Shown: positions 42,209 through 63,471, numbered from the stretch's first letter. The stretch: DNA of 64,000 bases from Candidatus Doudnabacteria bacterium (GCA_028286905.1 JAQBQP010000002.1:56971-120970); one strand, 5' to 3'. Notes: generated from the sequence alone by a model not told the origin. Numbers and translations are program-made.

Positions 42209-43231
42209 GTGGTTACAATGAACATCGCGATTGGCCTGGCGTGCTTAGCGATGTCTATGACCTTGTTCGTGTTGGTCTGTAAGGCGCGCAAACTGCTGTT
42301 GTTCGCCTGGATCTATTTGGCTTTTGGTGTGTTTATATTTGGGGCAGGGATACATTTTGTCCTGATCTCCGCCAATTCCAAATGGAATCTGCAATGGCTT
42401 TCGATAACGGTAGACCTAATGACGATGCTGGCAGCAGTGGCTATCGCCTTAGTTTTCCCGGCTGTTTTGCCAAAGGTGATCAAAATCCTTGGCGAAGCGC
42501 ATCTTTCCTTGGAAAGGAAAGTTGCTTTGGAGGCTGCAAGAAAGGCGGCTCGGCAAAAAACTGATTTCATGGCGATGATGTCCCACGAACTCAGAACGCC
42601 TTTGAACAGCATCGTCGGCTTTTGTTCTTTGATCGAAGATCAGCACTATGGGCCGGTCACCGAAGAGCAACGGATCGCGTTAGTGCGGATAAAGGATAGC
42701 TCCAGCCACTTAGTGAAGCTGGTCAGACAGATTCTTGACTACAATGGTCAGGAGCGAGCTGACTGGGAAGAGGTGGAGCTTGTGACTTTTTGCAAAACAG
42801 TCCTGGCAATGTTTGATCCGTTGCTTGGCAAGTACACTGTGTGTCTCGAGGTGGAGCTGCCCGAGGTGCCTTACCAGGTTTGGACTGATACGAAAAAACT
42901 TCGGCAGGTTATCACCAATCTGCTGCAGAATGCTTTCAAGTTCACCGAGCATGGCTCCGTTGGGTTTAGGGTCAGTTGTGTGGACGGGTTGGTATCGATT
43001 GAGGTCAGCGATACCGGAATCGGAATCAGTAAGGAAAATCTTGCCAAAATTTTTGATCCGTTTTGGCAAGTCGATAGGAGGAACATGCGCGCTGAAGCTG
43101 GCGCAGGGCTGGGACTAAGCATTACCCAACGCTTTGTGGAAATTCTTCAAGGCGATATCAAGGCACAAAGTGTGCTCGGAAAGGGTACGAAGTTCACAGT
43201 TCTTCTACCTCAAGCGCCGGATAAGGCTTGA
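42209..43231 (+). CDS. Orphan sensor histidine kinase with 4-TM N-terminal sensor, in a G+C-rich island
   Basis: H-box MSHELRTPLNSI; N/G boxes (QNAFKFT, DTGIGIS, GAGLGLSI); composition conspicuously GC-rich; may start at the internal Met (MNIAIG). Confidence 0.75.
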   Translation: MVTMNIAIGLACLAMSMTLFVLVCKARKLLLFAWIYLAFGVFIFGAGIHFVLISANSKWNLQWLSITVDLMTMLAAVAIALVFPAVLPKVIKILGEAHLSLERKVALEAARKAARQKTDFMAMMSHELRTPLNSIVGFCSLIEDQHYGPVTEEQRIALVRIKDSSSHLVKLVRQILDYNGQERADWEEVELVTFCKTVLAMFDPLLGKYTVCLEVELPEVPYQVWTDTKKLRQVITNLLQNAFKFTEHGSVGFRVSCVDGLVSIEVSDTGIGISKENLAKIFDPFWQVDRRNMRAEAGAGLGLSITQRFVEILQGDIKAQSVLGKGTKFTVLLPQAPDKA

Positions 43232-43295
43232 GGTAGGCAGTACAACAAAGGGCGCTCTTTCACGAGAGCGCCCTTCTTGTTACAATATTAGCAAT

Positions 43296-44165
43296 ATGAA
43301 CTCAGAAAAAATAAAAAATTATTATCGCCTTGCAAAGCCGGGAATTATTTACGGCAATGCTTTAACCGCAGCAGCAGGATTTATACTTGCTTCAAAGTAT
43401 CCGGTAAATCCAAAACTTTTTCTTTTAACTTTAATTGGGATATCTTTTGTTATTGGTGGTGGCTGCGTTTTTAATAATTACTTGGATCGTTCGATTGATT
43501 CAAAAATGGAACGTACTAAGCGTCGAGTTTTGGTGAGCGGCGTTATCTCTGGACGGAGTTCATTAATTTATGGAACGATTTTAGAACTGATAGGAATGTT
43601 AATCTTAGCGCTACACACCAATCTTTTAACTTTTGGTTTGGCAATAGTTGGTTTTATTTTTTATGTTTTCATTTACACTTTCGCCAAGCGGTATACAGTT
43701 TACAGTACAATTATTGGTAGTGTCTCCGGATCGATTCCACCGCTGGTCGGCTATTGTGCGGTATCGAACCGAATTGATTTAGGTGCTGTAATATTATTTT
43801 TGACGATCTGTTTTTGGCAAATGCCACATTTTTACGCAATTTCAATTTATAGAGTAGAGGATTATCGAAGCGCAGGGTTGCCAGTCTTGTCAGTCCAAAA
43901 AGGTACGAACACAGCAAAAAAACACATTCCATTTTATATATTAGCTTACCTAGTTAGTGCCAGTTTACTAGTTTTTTACCATTATACCGGGTTGGTTTAT
44001 TTAGTTTTAGTTATGATATCTGGACTCGTTTGGTTAGCGTATTCTTTAAAAGGCTTCAGATCTGGAGTCAGCGAAGAATCTTGGGCAAAAAAAGTATTCG
44101 GTCTTTCTTTGGTAGTGATAATGCTTTTTTGCTTGGCAATTCCAATAGATAAATTTTTTAGATAG
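43296..44165 (+). CDS. cyoE: Protoheme IX farnesyltransferase (heme O synthase)
   Basis: UbiA-family motif NYLDRSIDSKMERTKRR and ~8 TM; start moved to the internal Met to avoid overlap with the histidine kinase. Confidence 0.8.
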   Translation: MNSEKIKNYYRLAKPGIIYGNALTAAAGFILASKYPVNPKLFLLTLIGISFVIGGGCVFNNYLDRSIDSKMERTKRRVLVSGVISGRSSLIYGTILELIGMLILALHTNLLTFGLAIVGFIFYVFIYTFAKRYTVYSTIIGSVSGSIPPLVGYCAVSNRIDLGAVILFLTICFWQMPHFYAISIYRVEDYRSAGLPVLSVQKGTNTAKKHIPFYILAYLVSASLLVFYHYTGLVYLVLVMISGLVWLAYSLKGFRSGVSEESWAKKVFGLSLVVIMLFCLAIPIDKFFR

Positions 44166-44166
44166 A

Positions 44167-46560
44167 TTATTGATCTAGATTTTTTAAAACTTTTTTTAAA
44201 TCAATTCCTTTACCCAAGACTGGTTTCCAAAGATCACCTTTTTTTGCTAAACGCGCAAAAATGTTTTTAACGTTAAAGTTTTTAGGATCAAGGCCCTTTT
44301 TAACCTCTTTCCATTCCAAAGGAGTGGACACTGGCGCACCCGGTCGCGGCCTAACGCTATAGGCCGCTGCTAAGGTTTGGCCTTTGCGGTTTTGCAAAAA
44401 ATCTAAATATATTTGTTTCTTTCGTTTGCTCGGGCTGCGTACTAAGCTGGTAGTTTTAGGTAATTTTTTTTGCACAATTGTGGCAACAATTTCAGCAAAT
44501 TGTTTTGTTTGATCGTAATTGTATTTTGCTGCCAAAGGAATAAAGATGTGCAATCCTGTTGCTCCGGAAGTTTTGCAGTAAGAGGCTGCCCCGGCTTTCT
44601 CCAAAACTTTGTGGATGGTTTGCGCCGCTTCAATAACTTTATCGAAAGAAATATCGCCCGGATCTAGGTCGATTACGGCATAGTCCGGATTCTCAAGGTT
44701 TTTTAGTCTTGAACTCCAAGGATTAATTTCAATACAACCGAGATTGGCCATATATAAAAGAGTTTTTTGATCTTGGCAAACTAAATAATTAATATTTTTC
44801 TGGTTTGATTCAGAAAAGACTTCTACAGTTTCAATCCAGTTGGGCAGTGAATGTCCAACATCTTTTTGGAAAAAACTCTGGCCATCAATGCCATTCGGAT
44901 GTCGGTTCATTGATTCTGGGCGATCTTTGAGATAGGGCAGAATATACGGAGATATTTTTCGATAATAATTTATCAGGTCTCCTTTGGTATATTTTTCTTT
45001 TGGCCAAAAGATTTTATCCAAATGTGTGAATTCAGAAGGTCTTTCGTTTTTCGGCGAAACTTTTTTTATGGGCTCAATTTGTTCTTTGATAACACTTTCT
45101 TGATTCTTATCTTTGCGAAGTCCTAAAAAAATTGGCTGGCGCATCGTGCCTTGATCAGTCCATTCTTGAAAAACTACTTCGCATACCAATTCAGGCTTGA
45201 CCCAGGTAGCGGGAGCATTGGTCTTTGGCGGAACTTTAAAGGGGGATTTAGAAATTTTTAAAAGATCCATTTTTGCTTTTAGCGCTTTGATTGCTTTATC
45301 ATCAAACCCACCGCCAGTATGCCCGATATAGCGCAAATTGTTTTTTTGATGCAAACCTAAAATTAATGCTCCAAAACCTTTGCGTCCACCACGCGGCGCA
45401 GTATACCCGCAAATAATTGCTTCTTGGCGCATATGTGTTTTTATCTTCAGCCATTCAGCGCTTCTTTTGCCGCTGCGGTATGGGCTGTCCGCTTTTTTCG
45501 CGATAATTCCTTCTAACTGAGCTTTTTTCGCCAGAACAAAAAGTTTTTTACCTTCGCCAATCGTATGCTCGGAAAATTTTAATACTTTACTTTTAGGAAC
45601 CAAGTTTTTTAAAAGCGCTTTTCGTTTTATTAAGGGCAGCTCCCGCAAATCCTTTCCATCTAAATATAAAAGATCAAAAACGTAATATACTAAGGTGCTT
45701 TTTTTGATTTGATAATCTTGTAATAATTGAAAACTGGGTTTGCCAGAACTGTCTAAAGCAACAACCTCTCCATCTAATATCGCGTTAACTTTTAATTTTT
45801 CTAACTCTTTAACGACCGGAGAGAACTGCGCATTAAAAGTATTATCATTGCGAGAATATAATCGTACTTTTTTATCTTGTATCTCGGCAATTGCCCGATA
45901 ACCATCCCATTTGTTTTCGTAAATCCAATCATTGTCATCAAAAGGCTGGTCGGTTAGTTTTGCGAGCATCGGTTGAACGCTTTGAGGCATCGGTACCTTA
46001 ACAGAAGCTGCTACTTTAGGTGTTTTTGTAGCGGAGCTGTTGTTAACGGCAAATTGATCATCCGCTTTTACTAATAGCCAAGCGTTTTCTTTTGCTGATT
46101 TTTGGGCTTTAATTTTTATTAAAGCAAATTCTCCTTTGAGTTTTTCTCCAAATATTACAAAGGTTATATGCCCTTTGTGTAAGCCAGCTTTAATTAGCTT
46201 CTCACTTTGTTTGCGTTCAGCGGTTTGGACCGAACTGTAAAAGCCTTTGTCCCAAATTGAAACGTGTCCTGCGCCATAATTGCCTTTAGGGATGTCTCCT
46301 TCAAAACCGCCATAGCTAATTGGATGGTCTTCAACCATCATTGCTAAGCGTTTGTCGCCCGGATTCATAGAAGGGCCTTTCGGCACGGCCCAGCTTAGTA
46401 AAACACCTTCTAACTCTAATCGAAAGTCGTAATGTAAATGTGAAGCGTGATGCTCTTGAACTACAAAGCTTAAAGGCTTGCTTTTCCCGGCAGGCAATTT
46501 TTTGCCTTTTGGTTCAGGAGTGGTATTAAACTTTCTTTTTTTATTATATTTTTCTAACAT
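44167..46560 (-). CDS. ligD: Multidomain ATP-dependent DNA ligase LigD (phosphoesterase, ligase, polymerase domains)
   Basis: PE domain HASHLHYDFRLE; ligase KxDG in ENKWDGYR; C-terminal LigD polymerase/primase domain. Confidence 0.85.
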   Translation of the reverse strand: MLEKYNKKRKFNTTPEPKGKKLPAGKSKPLSFVVQEHHASHLHYDFRLELEGVLLSWAVPKGPSMNPGDKRLAMMVEDHPISYGGFEGDIPKGNYGAGHVSIWDKGFYSSVQTAERKQSEKLIKAGLHKGHITFVIFGEKLKGEFALIKIKAQKSAKENAWLLVKADDQFAVNNSSATKTPKVAASVKVPMPQSVQPMLAKLTDQPFDDNDWIYENKWDGYRAIAEIQDKKVRLYSRNDNTFNAQFSPVVKELEKLKVNAILDGEVVALDSSGKPSFQLLQDYQIKKSTLVYYVFDLLYLDGKDLRELPLIKRKALLKNLVPKSKVLKFSEHTIGEGKKLFVLAKKAQLEGIIAKKADSPYRSGKRSAEWLKIKTHMRQEAIICGYTAPRGGRKGFGALILGLHQKNNLRYIGHTGGGFDDKAIKALKAKMDLLKISKSPFKVPPKTNAPATWVKPELVCEVVFQEWTDQGTMRQPIFLGLRKDKNQESVIKEQIEPIKKVSPKNERPSEFTHLDKIFWPKEKYTKGDLINYYRKISPYILPYLKDRPESMNRHPNGIDGQSFFQKDVGHSLPNWIETVEVFSESNQKNINYLVCQDQKTLLYMANLGCIEINPWSSRLKNLENPDYAVIDLDPGDISFDKVIEAAQTIHKVLEKAGAASYCKTSGATGLHIFIPLAAKYNYDQTKQFAEIVATIVQKKLPKTTSLVRSPSKRKKQIYLDFLQNRKGQTLAAAYSVRPRPGAPVSTPLEWKEVKKGLDPKNFNVKNIFARLAKKGDLWKPVLGKGIDLKKVLKNLDQ

Positions 46561-51581: not shown

Positions 51582-53549
51582 ATGAGCTTACTTTTCGGAA
51601 GATTAACTTTAGCAGATTTGCCGCACGAATGGTTTACAGTCGGCGGAACCGCGACGATTCTTTTAGGATTGTTAGGCATTGCCGCGCTATTAACTTATTA
51701 CAAGCGTTGGAAGTGGCTTTGGCAAGAATGGTTCACCTCTACTGATCCCAAAAAAATTGGAATTATGTATATTCTTTTTGCAGCGGTGATGTTATTCCGT
51801 GGCGCTTTGGATGCCGCGATGATTTGGGCCCAACAAGCGATGTCAGTAGGTTCGAACCATGGCTATTTAACTCCTGCACATTTTCAGCAAATTTTTACTG
51901 CGCATGGTGACATTATGGTTTTCTTCGTCACAATGGGTTTTTTGTCCGGATTACTTAACTTATTAATTCCGCTCCAAATTGGCGCGCGGGATTTAGCCTA
52001 TCCGTTCTTAAATACTTTGGCTTTCTGGCTTTATGTCGCAGGCGCAATCTTTATAAATTTATTTTTCGTTTTTGGCGGAAACTTTGCCGCTACCGGCTGG
52101 CTGTCTTTGCCGCCATTGTCTGGGTTAGCGTATAGCCCAGGGGTGGGAGTGGATTACTGGATATGGAGTTTGCAAATATCCGGCGTAGGAAGCTTAATTG
52201 CAGGTATTAATTTTATTGTAACAATCCTGAAAATGCGCGCACCGGGCATGACCTTAATGAAGATGCCACTATTTGTTTGGACTTCTTTATGCAGCATGAT
52301 TATGGTAGTTTCGATTTTTCCAATTCTTGCAGCAACTCTTGGAATGCTTTGGTTGGATCGCTATTTCGGCCTGCATTTTTTCACTTCAGATTTTGGCGGC
52401 AACCCGATGATGTATATTAATCTTATTTGGATGTGGGGTCATCCAGAAGTGTATGTTTTGATTTTGCCATCGTTCGGAATTTATTCAGAAGTTGTGGCTA
52501 CCTTTTCACAAAAGAAACTTTTCGGCTACAAATCCTTGGTTGGCGGAGCACTTGGCATTACGGCTTTATCATTCTTAGTTTGGGCGCATCATTTTTTCAC
52601 GATGGGAGCGGGCGCCAATGTAAATGCATTTTTTGGGATTATGACCGGATTTATTGCATTGCCAACCGGGGTGCAGATTTTTAATTGGATCTCCACTATG
52701 TATAAAGGCAGAATTATTTACTCGCAGCCAATGCATTGGTTCTTTGGCTTCTTAGCTACCTTTACCTTTGGCGGTATGGCCGGGCTACTAATGTCTTCAC
52801 CAGCAGCGGACTACGCTTTGCATAATACTTTATTTTTAGTAGCGCATTTTCACACGATGATTATTGGCGGAGCGTTATTTGGAATTTTTGCCGGAATAGT
52901 TTATTGGTTTCCAAAATTTACCGGATTTAAGCTTGATGAGCGTTGGGGCAGGCGTGCGTTTTGGTTCTGGCTAGTTGGATTTTTCCTGTCTTTCGCTCCT
53001 CTATATATGTTAGGTTTTTTGGGTGCGACCCGAAGACTAGACCATTACGATGCTTCAATGGGTTGGCAAGGTTTGTTTATCGTTTCTGCGGTTGGCATTA
53101 CCGTAATTGGAGTTGGTGCTTTGTGCCAAGTAATTCAAATTATAGTTAGCGTTAAAAACAGAAAGCAGAACTTGGATTTAACAGGCGATCCTTGGAACGG
53201 CAGAACTTTAGAATGGGCCACATCTTCGCCGCCACCTGTTTATAACTTCGCAGTAATTCCTACTGTTCAAACACGCGATGCATTTTGGGAACAGAAGCAA
53301 TCTAAAACAATTACCAAACCAGTATACGAAGATATTGTTTTGCCTCGAAATACCGCGATGGGAATGTACGTTTCAGCGTTTGTGTTTTTGGCCGGCTTCG
53401 GGCTAGTTTGGCATATTACTTGGTTAATATTCTTTGGATTAATCGGAACCGTTGTTTGTATTGTTATGCGTGCGCTTGATCAAAATACCGAATATATAAT
53501 CCCTGCAGTGGAAGTAGAACGAATGGAGCAAGTATGGAAAAAGAATTAG
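51582..53549 (+). CDS. cyoB: Cytochrome o ubiquinol oxidase subunit I
   Basis: Heme-copper oxidase subunit I fold; ~15 TM; conserved His ligands (WAHHFF, HFHTMIIGG). Confidence 0.9.
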   Translation: MSLLFGRLTLADLPHEWFTVGGTATILLGLLGIAALLTYYKRWKWLWQEWFTSTDPKKIGIMYILFAAVMLFRGALDAAMIWAQQAMSVGSNHGYLTPAHFQQIFTAHGDIMVFFVTMGFLSGLLNLLIPLQIGARDLAYPFLNTLAFWLYVAGAIFINLFFVFGGNFAATGWLSLPPLSGLAYSPGVGVDYWIWSLQISGVGSLIAGINFIVTILKMRAPGMTLMKMPLFVWTSLCSMIMVVSIFPILAATLGMLWLDRYFGLHFFTSDFGGNPMMYINLIWMWGHPEVYVLILPSFGIYSEVVATFSQKKLFGYKSLVGGALGITALSFLVWAHHFFTMGAGANVNAFFGIMTGFIALPTGVQIFNWISTMYKGRIIYSQPMHWFFGFLATFTFGGMAGLLMSSPAADYALHNTLFLVAHFHTMIIGGALFGIFAGIVYWFPKFTGFKLDERWGRRAFWFWLVGFFLSFAPLYMLGFLGATRRLDHYDASMGWQGLFIVSAVGITVIGVGALCQVIQIIVSVKNRKQNLDLTGDPWNGRTLEWATSSPPPVYNFAVIPTVQTRDAFWEQKQSKTITKPVYEDIVLPRNTAMGMYVSAFVFLAGFGLVWHITWLIFFGLIGTVVCIVMRALDQNTEYIIPAVEVERMEQVWKKN

Positions 53550-62500: not shown

Positions 62501-62725
62501 AATATTTAAATTATATTAATTTGATAGAGACATACAAAGTACCGGTGCTTTTAAAACATTATACATTCTAAGTGTGAAAACACCAACTTTAACGCTGATG
62601 TTATTGCTCCGGAGGTGTGCATGCCCGCTTCGCTATGCATTTCCTTTAAGAACATTGCCTTCAGGAACATAAATTACAGAAGTCAGATTCGGACCTTACG
62701 GCTCATCATACACCTAATAAAATTT

Positions 62726-62750
62726 AAAAGCACCATTGAATGGTGCTTTT
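62726..62750 (-). terminator. Terminator hairpin (AAAAGCACCATTGAATGGTGCTTTT) downstream of the intron-containing tRNA
   Basis: Perfect 10-bp stem; on the minus strand it is followed by TTTTAAATTTTATT. Confidence 0.6.
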
Positions 62751-62796
62751 AAATTTGGCTCGGGAGGTGGGATTCGGACCCACGACCAATCGATTA

Positions 62797-63336
62797 CACG
62801 TATCCCTAAATTTCTCTAAGGGGTGGACTATATCATCATCCCACTTTTACTGGGATGCGAGGCGCTTCGGCCGATCTTCATCGGACTACTCCTTGCGGAT
62901 AGTCTCTGAACCTTCCCCAATTATAAGTCGGGGCTTGGCTGCTGATTGCCCCGAAGGGTTTCCAGCAATTCACCTCGTTTTTCCATCCTCAATTACTTGA
63001 AGAGGCTGCAATTAGACCGGCATGTATTTCTTTGTAACAGTTTGAGCAAATTAGAACGCATTTTTCTAACTCTTTTCGTGTTCTTTCCCACGATCGAGTC
63101 AGTCCACTAAGCGCAATTCCAAATTCTTTGGTTTTACGATCCAAGTGGTGAAATTCTAAAGCTGCTAGACATCTATCGTAGCACAGAGCTTGCACTTGCC
63201 GCCTTTTAAAGCGACGGCCATGGCTTTGATTTTCTTACGTCTCTTATCTACTGCCAGTTTGATATACTCTTTTCGGTCTGAATATTTTCTTTGTTCTTTC
63301 ATACTTTGATAGTATCAAAGAATTAGATGGTATTAC
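62797..63336 (-). mobile_element. Group I intron (self-splicing-type) inserted in the tRNA anticodon loop
   Basis: P7 strands ...GGTTCAGAGACTA... and ...TATAGTCCACC...; P9-like hairpin CCCTTAGAGAAATTTAGGG followed by ATACG (omega-G) directly before the 3' exon; internal HNH ORF; boundaries +/- 2 nt. Confidence 0.7.
62989..63301 (-). pseudogene. Intron-encoded HNH homing endonuclease, split by a frameshift (ATG at 63301; C-terminal part in another frame ending 62989)
   Basis: Frame 1: MKEQRKYSDRKEYIKLAVDKRRKKIKAMAVALKGGKCKLCATIDV*; frame +2 continues ...ALCYDRCLAALEFHHLDRKTKEFG...CVLICSNCYKEIH with HNH motifs (HH..D, CxxC...H). Confidence 0.6.
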
Positions 63337-63419
63337 AGTCGATTGCTCTACCACTGAGCTACTCCCGAATATTCTGTTTTGAACCATAGAATCGGCCTAT
63401 TTGGCCGAAACTACTCGAA

Positions 63420-63448
63420 TATTATTGCATTTCTTTTTGCTTAAGTCA
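63420..63448 (-). promoter_or_regulatory. Candidate sigma70 promoter for the intron-containing tRNA (-35 TTGACT, 17-nt spacer, -10 AATAAT)
   Basis: Read on the minus strand about 50 nt upstream of the tRNA 5' end. Confidence 0.3.
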
Positions 63449-63471
63449 ACAAACCAAGTATAATAATTGAT

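Follow-up and report, generated by a model that had tools for sequence, protein, structure and literature searches.

The classical group I introns of tRNA genes lie at position 34/35 of cyanobacterial tRNA-Leu(UAA), at 33/34 of tRNA-fMet and at 36/37 of tRNA-Arg(CCU), with endonucleases of the PD-(D/E)XK type in tRNA-fMet and of the LAGLIDADG type in tRNA-Arg (PMC13011429). A different class, inserted at 35/36 of tRNA-Asn(GUU), was described in Patescibacteria by Nakagawa et al. (2026, mSystems, PMC13011429; preprint July 2025, 10.1101/2025.07.03.662931), who cite the site class as 'Asn.4Ug' from Williams (2020), by their account the first to list it. Of 95 complete Patescibacteria genomes, 15 have introns of this class; in that survey of complete genomes HNH (PF01844) genes are carried by four of the introns, all in Patescibacteria, and 25 of the 28 introns at 35/36 belong to subgroup IA (PMC13011429). 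The tRNA-Asn intron of GCA_016700035.1 self-splices precisely at 35/36 in vitro in a guanosine-dependent manner, and standard tools either miss the split gene or, through a two-base shift by ARAGORN and tFind, call it tRNA-Thr(UGU) (PMC13011429). Here we describe a further locus of this kind in a 64,000-nucleotide stretch of Candidatus Doudnabacteria bacterium (GCA_028286905.1, JAQBQP010000002.1:56971-120970; hereafter the window, whose numbering is used throughout). It is very probably a Patescibacteria tRNA-Asn(GUU) gene interrupted at 35/36 by a subgroup IA-like group I intron of 538 nt, with a once-working HNH endonuclease gene in the loop of P1.

The arrangement is a known, published and experimentally validated kind, of which the window locus is a further member, and the 35/36 tRNA-Asn intron is the typical tRNA intron of Patescibacteria. 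The locus shares with the introns of Nakagawa et al. the phylum, the tRNA, the insertion site, the GCAG guide, a homologous core, the IA-type hairpins, the HNH family and the same Asn/Thr mis-call by ARAGORN. It differs from them in that this copy is "Ca. Doudnabacteria"-like and lies outside their complete-genome set, in that its HNH gene is frameshifted twice and has lost the motif histidine, and in that its tRNA carries C55. A preliminary description of the window, made from the DNA letters without database searches, had called an HNH-bearing intron in a Thr or Asn tRNA unusual for a small-genome lineage; that view is out of date, because the class has been published (PMC13011429) and the site class goes back to Williams (2020). 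Like the introns listed by Williams, that of the window is an anticodon-loop intron, bounded by a U ahead of its 5' splice site and by its own terminal G, and was mapped via the reconstructed mature tRNA; Williams (2020) is a survey, however, and the portion of its text considered here makes no mention of endonuclease genes. The classical tRNA introns resemble it in being self-splicing, in lying in the anticodon loop, in forming P1 with anticodon-loop bases and, in some cases, in carrying endonuclease genes. They differ in being mostly of subgroup IC and in occupying other positions, in other tRNAs, with other endonuclease families.

The layout of the locus is as follows.

63335-63368, minus strand: tRNA-Asn 5' exon, 34 nt, with the acceptor strand, D arm, 5' strand of the anticodon stem, C32, U33, G34 and U35
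62797-63334, minus strand: 538-nt group I intron interrupting the anticodon at 35/36, recognized by RF00028, by ARAGORN and by homology to the validated intron
62797, minus strand: terminal intron G (omega G), with the 3' splice site directly after it
62756-62796, minus strand: tRNA-Asn 3' exon, 41 nt, with U36, A37, A38, the 3' strand of the anticodon stem and the variable loop, followed by the T arm (C55), acceptor strand, G73 and an encoded CCA

Read on the minus strand, the 5' exon is TCGGGAG-TA-GCTC-AGTGGTA-GAGC-A-ATCGA-CTGT and the 3' exon TAA-TCGAT-TGGTC-GTGGG-TCCGAAT-CCCAC-CTCCCGA-G-CCA. The central claim of the preliminary description, that a group I intron with an HNH-type homing-endonuclease gene splits the anticodon loop of a tRNA gene, is right. 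RF00028 (Intron_gpI) matches at 63110-62804 over the full model (1-253) with 87.7 bits (E = 5e-21), above its gathering score of 50, and ARAGORN, run in its intron-detecting mode, gives tRNA-Asn(gtt) c[62756,63368] i(35,538). The default ARAGORN run misses the split gene and finds a tRNA-Ser as the sole tRNA of the window. The strand given earlier was right and the coordinates were within 1-2 nt; the 5' exon starts at 63368 rather than 63367, the 3' exon spans 62796-62756, and the insert of about 540 nt comes to 538 nt (63334-62797).

With the intron removed, the exons form a cloverleaf with a GUU anticodon, a U1-A72 pair and G73, as found by ARAGORN on the spliced construct. G73 and the GUU anticodon are identity elements for the charging of tRNA-Asn. 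The spliced exons are 79% identical to the intronless tRNA-Asn of a related locus, L051, and likewise to the published, validated spliced tRNA-Asn.

The register of the splice sites was examined across related loci. GTDB species genomes were scanned with an alignment of the HNH protein, and the best 80 of at least 579 relatives were taken for locus analysis; their splice junctions were established by an ARAGORN check on every candidate splice. The 5' splice site is defined by P1, which has the following strands.

63332-63338, minus strand: P1 5' strand CUGU|AAU, that is, exon CUGU plus the first three intron bases, with the 5' splice site after U 63335
63006-63012, minus strand: P1 3' strand (internal guide sequence) AUUGCAG, overlapping the final HNH codons

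The CUGU/GCAG pairing, with a U.G wobble at U35, is invariant in 42 of 42 distinct sequences, and in these the adjoining pair co-varies (AU in 18, GC in 18, GU in 5 and one mismatch). P1 pairing, at 78%, falls to 26-41% once the partner strand is slid as a control. Every one of 70 distinct relatives ends its 5' exon in CTGT. The gene is a tRNA-Asn(GUU) with its intron at 35/36 and the choice between Asn and Thr can be made, since the P1 register, the conservation of the terminal G, the similarity of the exons to tRNA-Asn and the published in vitro splicing of the homologous intron all point to this junction.

A tRNA-Thr(UGU) gene with its intron at 33/34, which would make U33 the last base of the 5' exon and the G of ...AUACG that of the intron, has some features in its favour: in the window the base preceding the 5' splice site is U and the last intron base is G under both readings, the exons joined in the Thr register also give a cloverleaf, and ARAGORN calls Thr(tgt) i(33) in 27 of the 80 related loci. 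In P1, however, the wobble falls at U35, whereas U33 pairs with A. Of 70 distinct related introns, 67 end in G if the junction is at 35/36, as against 38 if it is at 33/34, two bases upstream. No more than 34 of the 70 formally allow a Thr reading at all. The U1-A72 pair, G73 and the 79% identity of the exons to an intronless tRNA-Asn also speak against Thr, and the spliced product of the homologous intron, which has been sequenced, is joined at 35/36, the Thr call being the two-base shift artefact (PMC13011429). We regard the Thr reading as scarcely credible. The anticodon, left ambiguous between Thr and Asn in the preliminary description, is resolved to Asn(GUU) by the P1 wobble, the terminal G and the published splicing, and the true end of the intron is the G of ...ACGUG|UAA at 62797 rather than that of ...AUACG. 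ARAGORN calls of His(gtg), Leu(taa) and Thr(cgt) on some relatives have the same CTGT|...G|TAA junctions and are tRNA-Asn.

The ribozyme was aligned from the guide sequence to the 3' exon with 38 distinct relatives. RNAalifold recovers P2, P3, P4, P5, P6/P6a, P8 and P9, and the P7 pseudoknot was put into this structure by hand. The elements are these.

62987-63002, minus strand: P2 hairpin CUUCAA-GUAA-UUGAGG (GNRA loop); compensatory changes occur at each of its 6 pairs, which are 97% paired
62973-62977, minus strand: P3 5' strand CGAGG; 5 of 5 P3 pairs with compensatory changes
62940-62967, minus strand: P4-P5 domain UGCUGG...CC-UUCG-GG...UCAGCA, from the covariation alignment
62910-62939, minus strand: P6 and P6a, from the covariation alignment
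62900-62906, minus strand: P7 5' strand GAGACUA with a bulged A; none of the 6 pairs varies among the 38 relatives
62867-62899, minus strand: P7.1 (UCC-GCAA-GGA) and P7.2 (CCGAU-GAAG-AUCGG), two small hairpins from energy folding
62858-62862, minus strand: P3 3' strand CCUCG, from the covariation alignment
62837-62857, minus strand: P8 hairpin, from the covariation alignment
62825-62830, minus strand: P7 3' strand UAGUCC, pairing with GAGACUA; invariant
62804-62821, minus strand: P9 hairpin with a GAAA loop, from the covariation alignment

The 46 consensus pairs are 96.1% paired across the 38 relatives, and 36 of them show changes on both sides. Shuffled alignments never attain the observed pairing values, and slid controls are 32-46% paired. 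The window copy keeps 46 of the 46 consensus pairs and 48 of the 48 near-invariant columns, and the validated intron of GCA_016700035.1 aligns along the whole of its core. The P7 strands picked out earlier, CAGAGACUA and AUAGUCC, are present and are invariant in 38 of 38 relatives. The intron has these sequence hallmarks of group I: an RF00028 match, the U.G wobble in P1, the omega G and a P3-P9 core with the P3/P7 pseudoknot and a bulged base in P7. The two hairpins between P7 and the 3' strand of P3 (33 nt) are predicted by energy folding in the window and in 22 of the 38 relatives; their position is as in subgroup IA, which agrees with the published IA class and not with the classical IC introns (PMC13011429). 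Two automatic placements were set aside. Rfam puts P1 and P2 inside the HNH open reading frame (ORF; 63110 onward); the real P1 is 63338-63332 with 63012-63006 and the real P2 is 63002-62987. RNAalifold matches GCA of the guide to the UGU found at the 3' splice site, a pairing that we attribute to the repetition of UGU and did not include.

The HNH ORF occupies the loop of P1 and extends with its final codons into the guide sequence and P2. The preliminary description had an HNH ORF starting 32 nt past the exon; the ATG at 63302 agrees with this, but the single ORF does not hold, the gene being in two fragments in different frames.

63165-63302, minus strand: HNH fragment 1, ATG plus 45 codons, ending in a premature stop from frameshift 1
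62989-63195, minus strand: HNH fragment 2, a 68-aa ORF in the other frame with the core of the HNH motif, YDRC...EFHH...CSNC[Y]KEIH
63182-63183, minus strand: frameshift 1, one G missing in the Gly codon of C-x-x-C-G-Y (DNA alignment column 201)
63034-63036, minus strand: TAC (Tyr) in place of the His of C-S-N-C-H; H90 is near-invariant, with His in 11 of 11 aligned relatives
63012-63013, minus strand: frameshift 2, an extra A, CTAATTG versus CT-ATTG in relatives (DNA alignment column 371)

Frameshift 1 falls on the near-invariant G41, which is Gly in 11 of 11 aligned relatives and lost in the window copy only; frameshift 2 changes the C-terminal tail from GLLQPSQVIE... to GLIAASSSN*. An intact frame with the complete C-x-x-C...H-H...N...H motif is thus absent from the window copy. 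The frame-repaired protein matches PHROG HNH families (E = 1e-25), and its 137 homologues, about 106 aa long, reach E values as low as 2.5e-54. PF01844 matches 11 of 11 intact relatives (best E = 6.2e-05) and does not match the repaired window protein. A profile of the family has weak matches over the motif to 6me0_C and 6ghc_A, HNH domains that belong to a group II intron maturase and to McrA. The family is like the HNH (beta-beta-alpha-metal) enzymes of PF01844, including the group II maturase and McrA domains, in its C-x-x-C...H-H...N...H motif. It is unlike PF01844 enzymes in general in its length of about 106 aa, its conserved basic N-terminal segment and its tie to tRNA-Asn genes.

The window HNH gene is probably a pseudogene, and its decay is probably real rather than an assembly error, because twenty other genes of the window have full-length domain matches. 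An HNH gene that is intact or still expressed, with the indels being assembly errors or bypassed by ribosomal frameshifting and the intron still mobile, seems improbable to us. Both indels do lie in two-base homopolymer contexts, the -1 and +1 changes jointly bring back the original frame, and 62 of the 63 intron-borne relatives are intact. Against this, none of the twenty other window genes shows a frame disruption, no slippery sequence is evident at 63183 on reading the window sequence, and the Tyr for the near-invariant His of C-S-N-C-H is independent of both indels; PF01844 fails on the repaired protein, too, yet matches all 11 relatives. Judged by its sequence, the decayed gene would have lost its endonuclease activity.

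The tRNA itself departs from the canonical form at one point: its T loop (62771-62777) reads UCCGAAU, with C at position 55, so that the T54-Psi55-C56 pattern is broken. tRNAs almost always carry U (pseudouridine 55) at this position. C55 is common to the window and its closest relative, L001, only, whereas 54 of 62 distinct related tRNA-Asn genes have TTCGA; the C55 flags raised for L052 and L073 are regular-expression artefacts. L001 has C55 yet an intact HNH gene, which marks C55 as a lineage trait.

Candidate transcription signals stand on both sides of the gene.

63421-63449, minus strand: sigma-70-like promoter candidate TTGACT-17 nt-AATAAT, TG-extended and agreeing with the consensus at 10 of 12 positions
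62720-62756, minus strand: terminator-like hairpin starting from the last base of the CCA, folding at -19.2 kcal/mol (z = -6.2)

The promoter candidate, about 50 nt upstream of the tRNA 5' end, is a consensus match with a presumed function. A simple terminator scan downstream of the tRNA-Asn called nothing, so the hairpin is a putative terminator by its fold.

These features bear on whether the locus is a decaying relic in which intron and tRNA are both non-functional and another tRNA-Asn gene serves the cell. The broken endonuclease gene, the unusual C55 and the restriction of the view to 64 kb of the genome would fit a relic, but we consider it very unlikely. None of the 46 consensus pairs and none of the 48 near-invariant positions of the ribozyme has been lost, C55 also occurs in the closest relative, L001, which has an intact HNH gene, the tRNA-Asn gene lies between a promoter-like site and a strong hairpin, and ARAGORN with intron detection finds no second tRNA-Asn within the 64 kb window. 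We conclude that a working 35/36 tRNA-Asn(GUU) intron with a disabled HNH gene is the best account. Several points weigh against it. P10 gave no convincing pairing on inspection by eye, and the subgroup is IA-like as judged solely from the P7.1/P7.2 hairpins. A second tRNA-Asn gene may lie outside the 64 kb window, and a tRNA partly impaired owing to C55 is conceivable. Splicing of the window copy itself is presumed from that of the homologous intron, and both HNH indels fall within short homopolymers (GG to G, A to AA), for which an assembly error could formally account.

The following course of events is proposed. One precursor transcript would be made from the promoter-like site about 50 nt upstream to the strong hairpin after the CCA, if these signals act as their sequences suggest. 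The intron RNA would fold into P1-P9, with CUGU and the first intron bases pairing with AUUGCAG about 325 nt downstream and U35 in the U.G wobble. Free guanosine would attack after U35, the terminal G (62797) would then replace the guanosine, and the exons would be joined to give the anticodon loop CUGUUAA. Intact HNH relatives presumably cut intron-less tRNA-Asn genes and so drive homing; in the window copy the two frameshifts and the His-to-Tyr change in the motif would have inactivated the enzyme. That the ribozyme has stayed fully intact would reflect a continuing need of the cell for it in producing this tRNA, and a dependence of the cell on self-splicing for tRNA-Asn is plausible.

The relatives of the HNH gene place this copy in a larger family. 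Among the 80 loci, the gene lies inside a tRNA-Asn intron in 63, with an intact motif in 62 of these, and is free-standing next to a tRNA-Asn in about 7; most of the remaining loci run off contig edges. An RF00028 match and a split tRNA-Asn accompany every fetched HNH relative (seven proteins, 14 loci). One locus, L026, is the published WWE3 case GCA_000503835.1 (intron 756863-757431, 569 nt; PMC13011429), and its HNH protein is 62% identical to that of the window.

The free-standing copies take several forms. In L024 (1504-2114), L027, L055, L069 and L088 the HNH gene lies just upstream of a tRNA-Asn with an ORF-less group I intron, and in L035 it lies downstream of a tRNA-Asn with a short ORF-less intron; the ORF-less introns beside free-standing genes are about 200-320 nt long, and that of L024 has the same CUGU|AA...UUGCAG P1. 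In L051 (1497-1891) 9 nt separate the gene from an intron-less tRNA-Asn downstream of it. Rfam models recognize the introns of L024, L035 and L069, and likewise the uninterrupted tRNA of L051 (71.8 bits). Free-standing copies may be intermediates between a free-standing and an intron-borne endonuclease gene. Downstream of the intron-less tRNA-Asn, L051 also has a partial direct repeat of the tRNA 3' half (1913-1989; CTGTTAAGGATAAGGTCGTAGG...), of the kind that integration of an element into a tRNA gene typically leaves. Serine recombinase (resolvase) genes lie directly downstream of the split tRNA-Asn in L005 (3021-4628), L009 (3103-3723) and L010 (3179-3658), which suggests integrative elements using the split tRNA-Asn as an attachment site.

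Some members of the family, which numbers at least 579 in GTDB species genomes, are found in metagenome-assembled genomes (MAGs) named outside Patescibacteria. HNH-bearing tRNA-Asn introns occur in MAGs named, by record titles or source names, Nitrospira, Acidobacteriota/Pyrinomonadaceae, Planctomycetes, Omnitrophota and Melainabacteria, and further ones in MAGs named Heliobacteriaceae, Bacteroidetes, Deltaproteobacteria and Aerophobetes (L030, L039, L042, L048, L049, L053, L056, L061, L067, L073, L078, L082, L084, L090 and L006-L011). Some of these carriers are contigs of 88-168 kb, with flank GC content of up to 0.52-0.70. In L009-L011 (1-2441, named Aerophobetes) the split tRNA-Asn directly follows a 23S-5S rRNA pair; unlike there, the 23S end and 5S gene of the window lie about 62 kb from its tRNA-Asn.

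A wider reading, which we offer tentatively as a possibility, sees the window element as a decaying copy of a very large mobile family specific to tRNA-Asn, whose HNH enzyme targets the tRNA-Asn gene itself, occurs both intron-borne and free-standing and has seemingly spread the intron well beyond Patescibacteria. What the relatives show is an association of the HNH gene with tRNA-Asn, inside its introns in 63 of 80 loci and beside it in about 7. The family appears, from MAG names, to extend to Nitrospira, Acidobacteriota, Planctomycetia, Omnitrophota, Melainabacteria and others, and the free-standing copies could be natural intermediates on the route to one mobile endonuclease-intron unit.

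The rest of the window gives the context of the locus. The closest named relatives of its RpoD (primary sigma factor) come from "Ca. Doudnabacteria"; proteins bearing that name or Patescibacteria group share 92-93% identity with it, which places the host in Patescibacteria. The window also encodes COX1 (cytochrome oxidase subunit I, 51582-53549; E = 1.6e-133), a UbiA-family prenyltransferase that is possibly a heme O synthase (43134-44165) and a full three-domain LigD (44167-46560). Respiratory oxidases are uncommon in Patescibacteria. Positions 1-464 hold the 3' end of a 23S rRNA with a 79-nt insertion relative to the Rfam model near the 3' end, followed at 648-763 by a rather divergent 5S rRNA (58 bits).

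Modestly new here are the large number of further HNH-bearing copies, the occurrence of carriers with names from outside Patescibacteria and the existence of HNH genes standing free next to tRNA-Asn. For annotation, finders that miss the gene or call it tRNA-Thr make a genome seem to be without tRNA-Asn and lower its apparent completeness, a point already made by Nakagawa et al. (PMC13011429). The window locus is a clear example of a late stage of the homing cycle, in which the endonuclease is decaying and the ribozyme of an essential tRNA is perfectly preserved. Our survey suggests that the HNH-bearing form is far commoner and more widely spread than the four published cases (PMC13011429), and this wider spread, together with the free-standing copies, is of interest for intron mobility.

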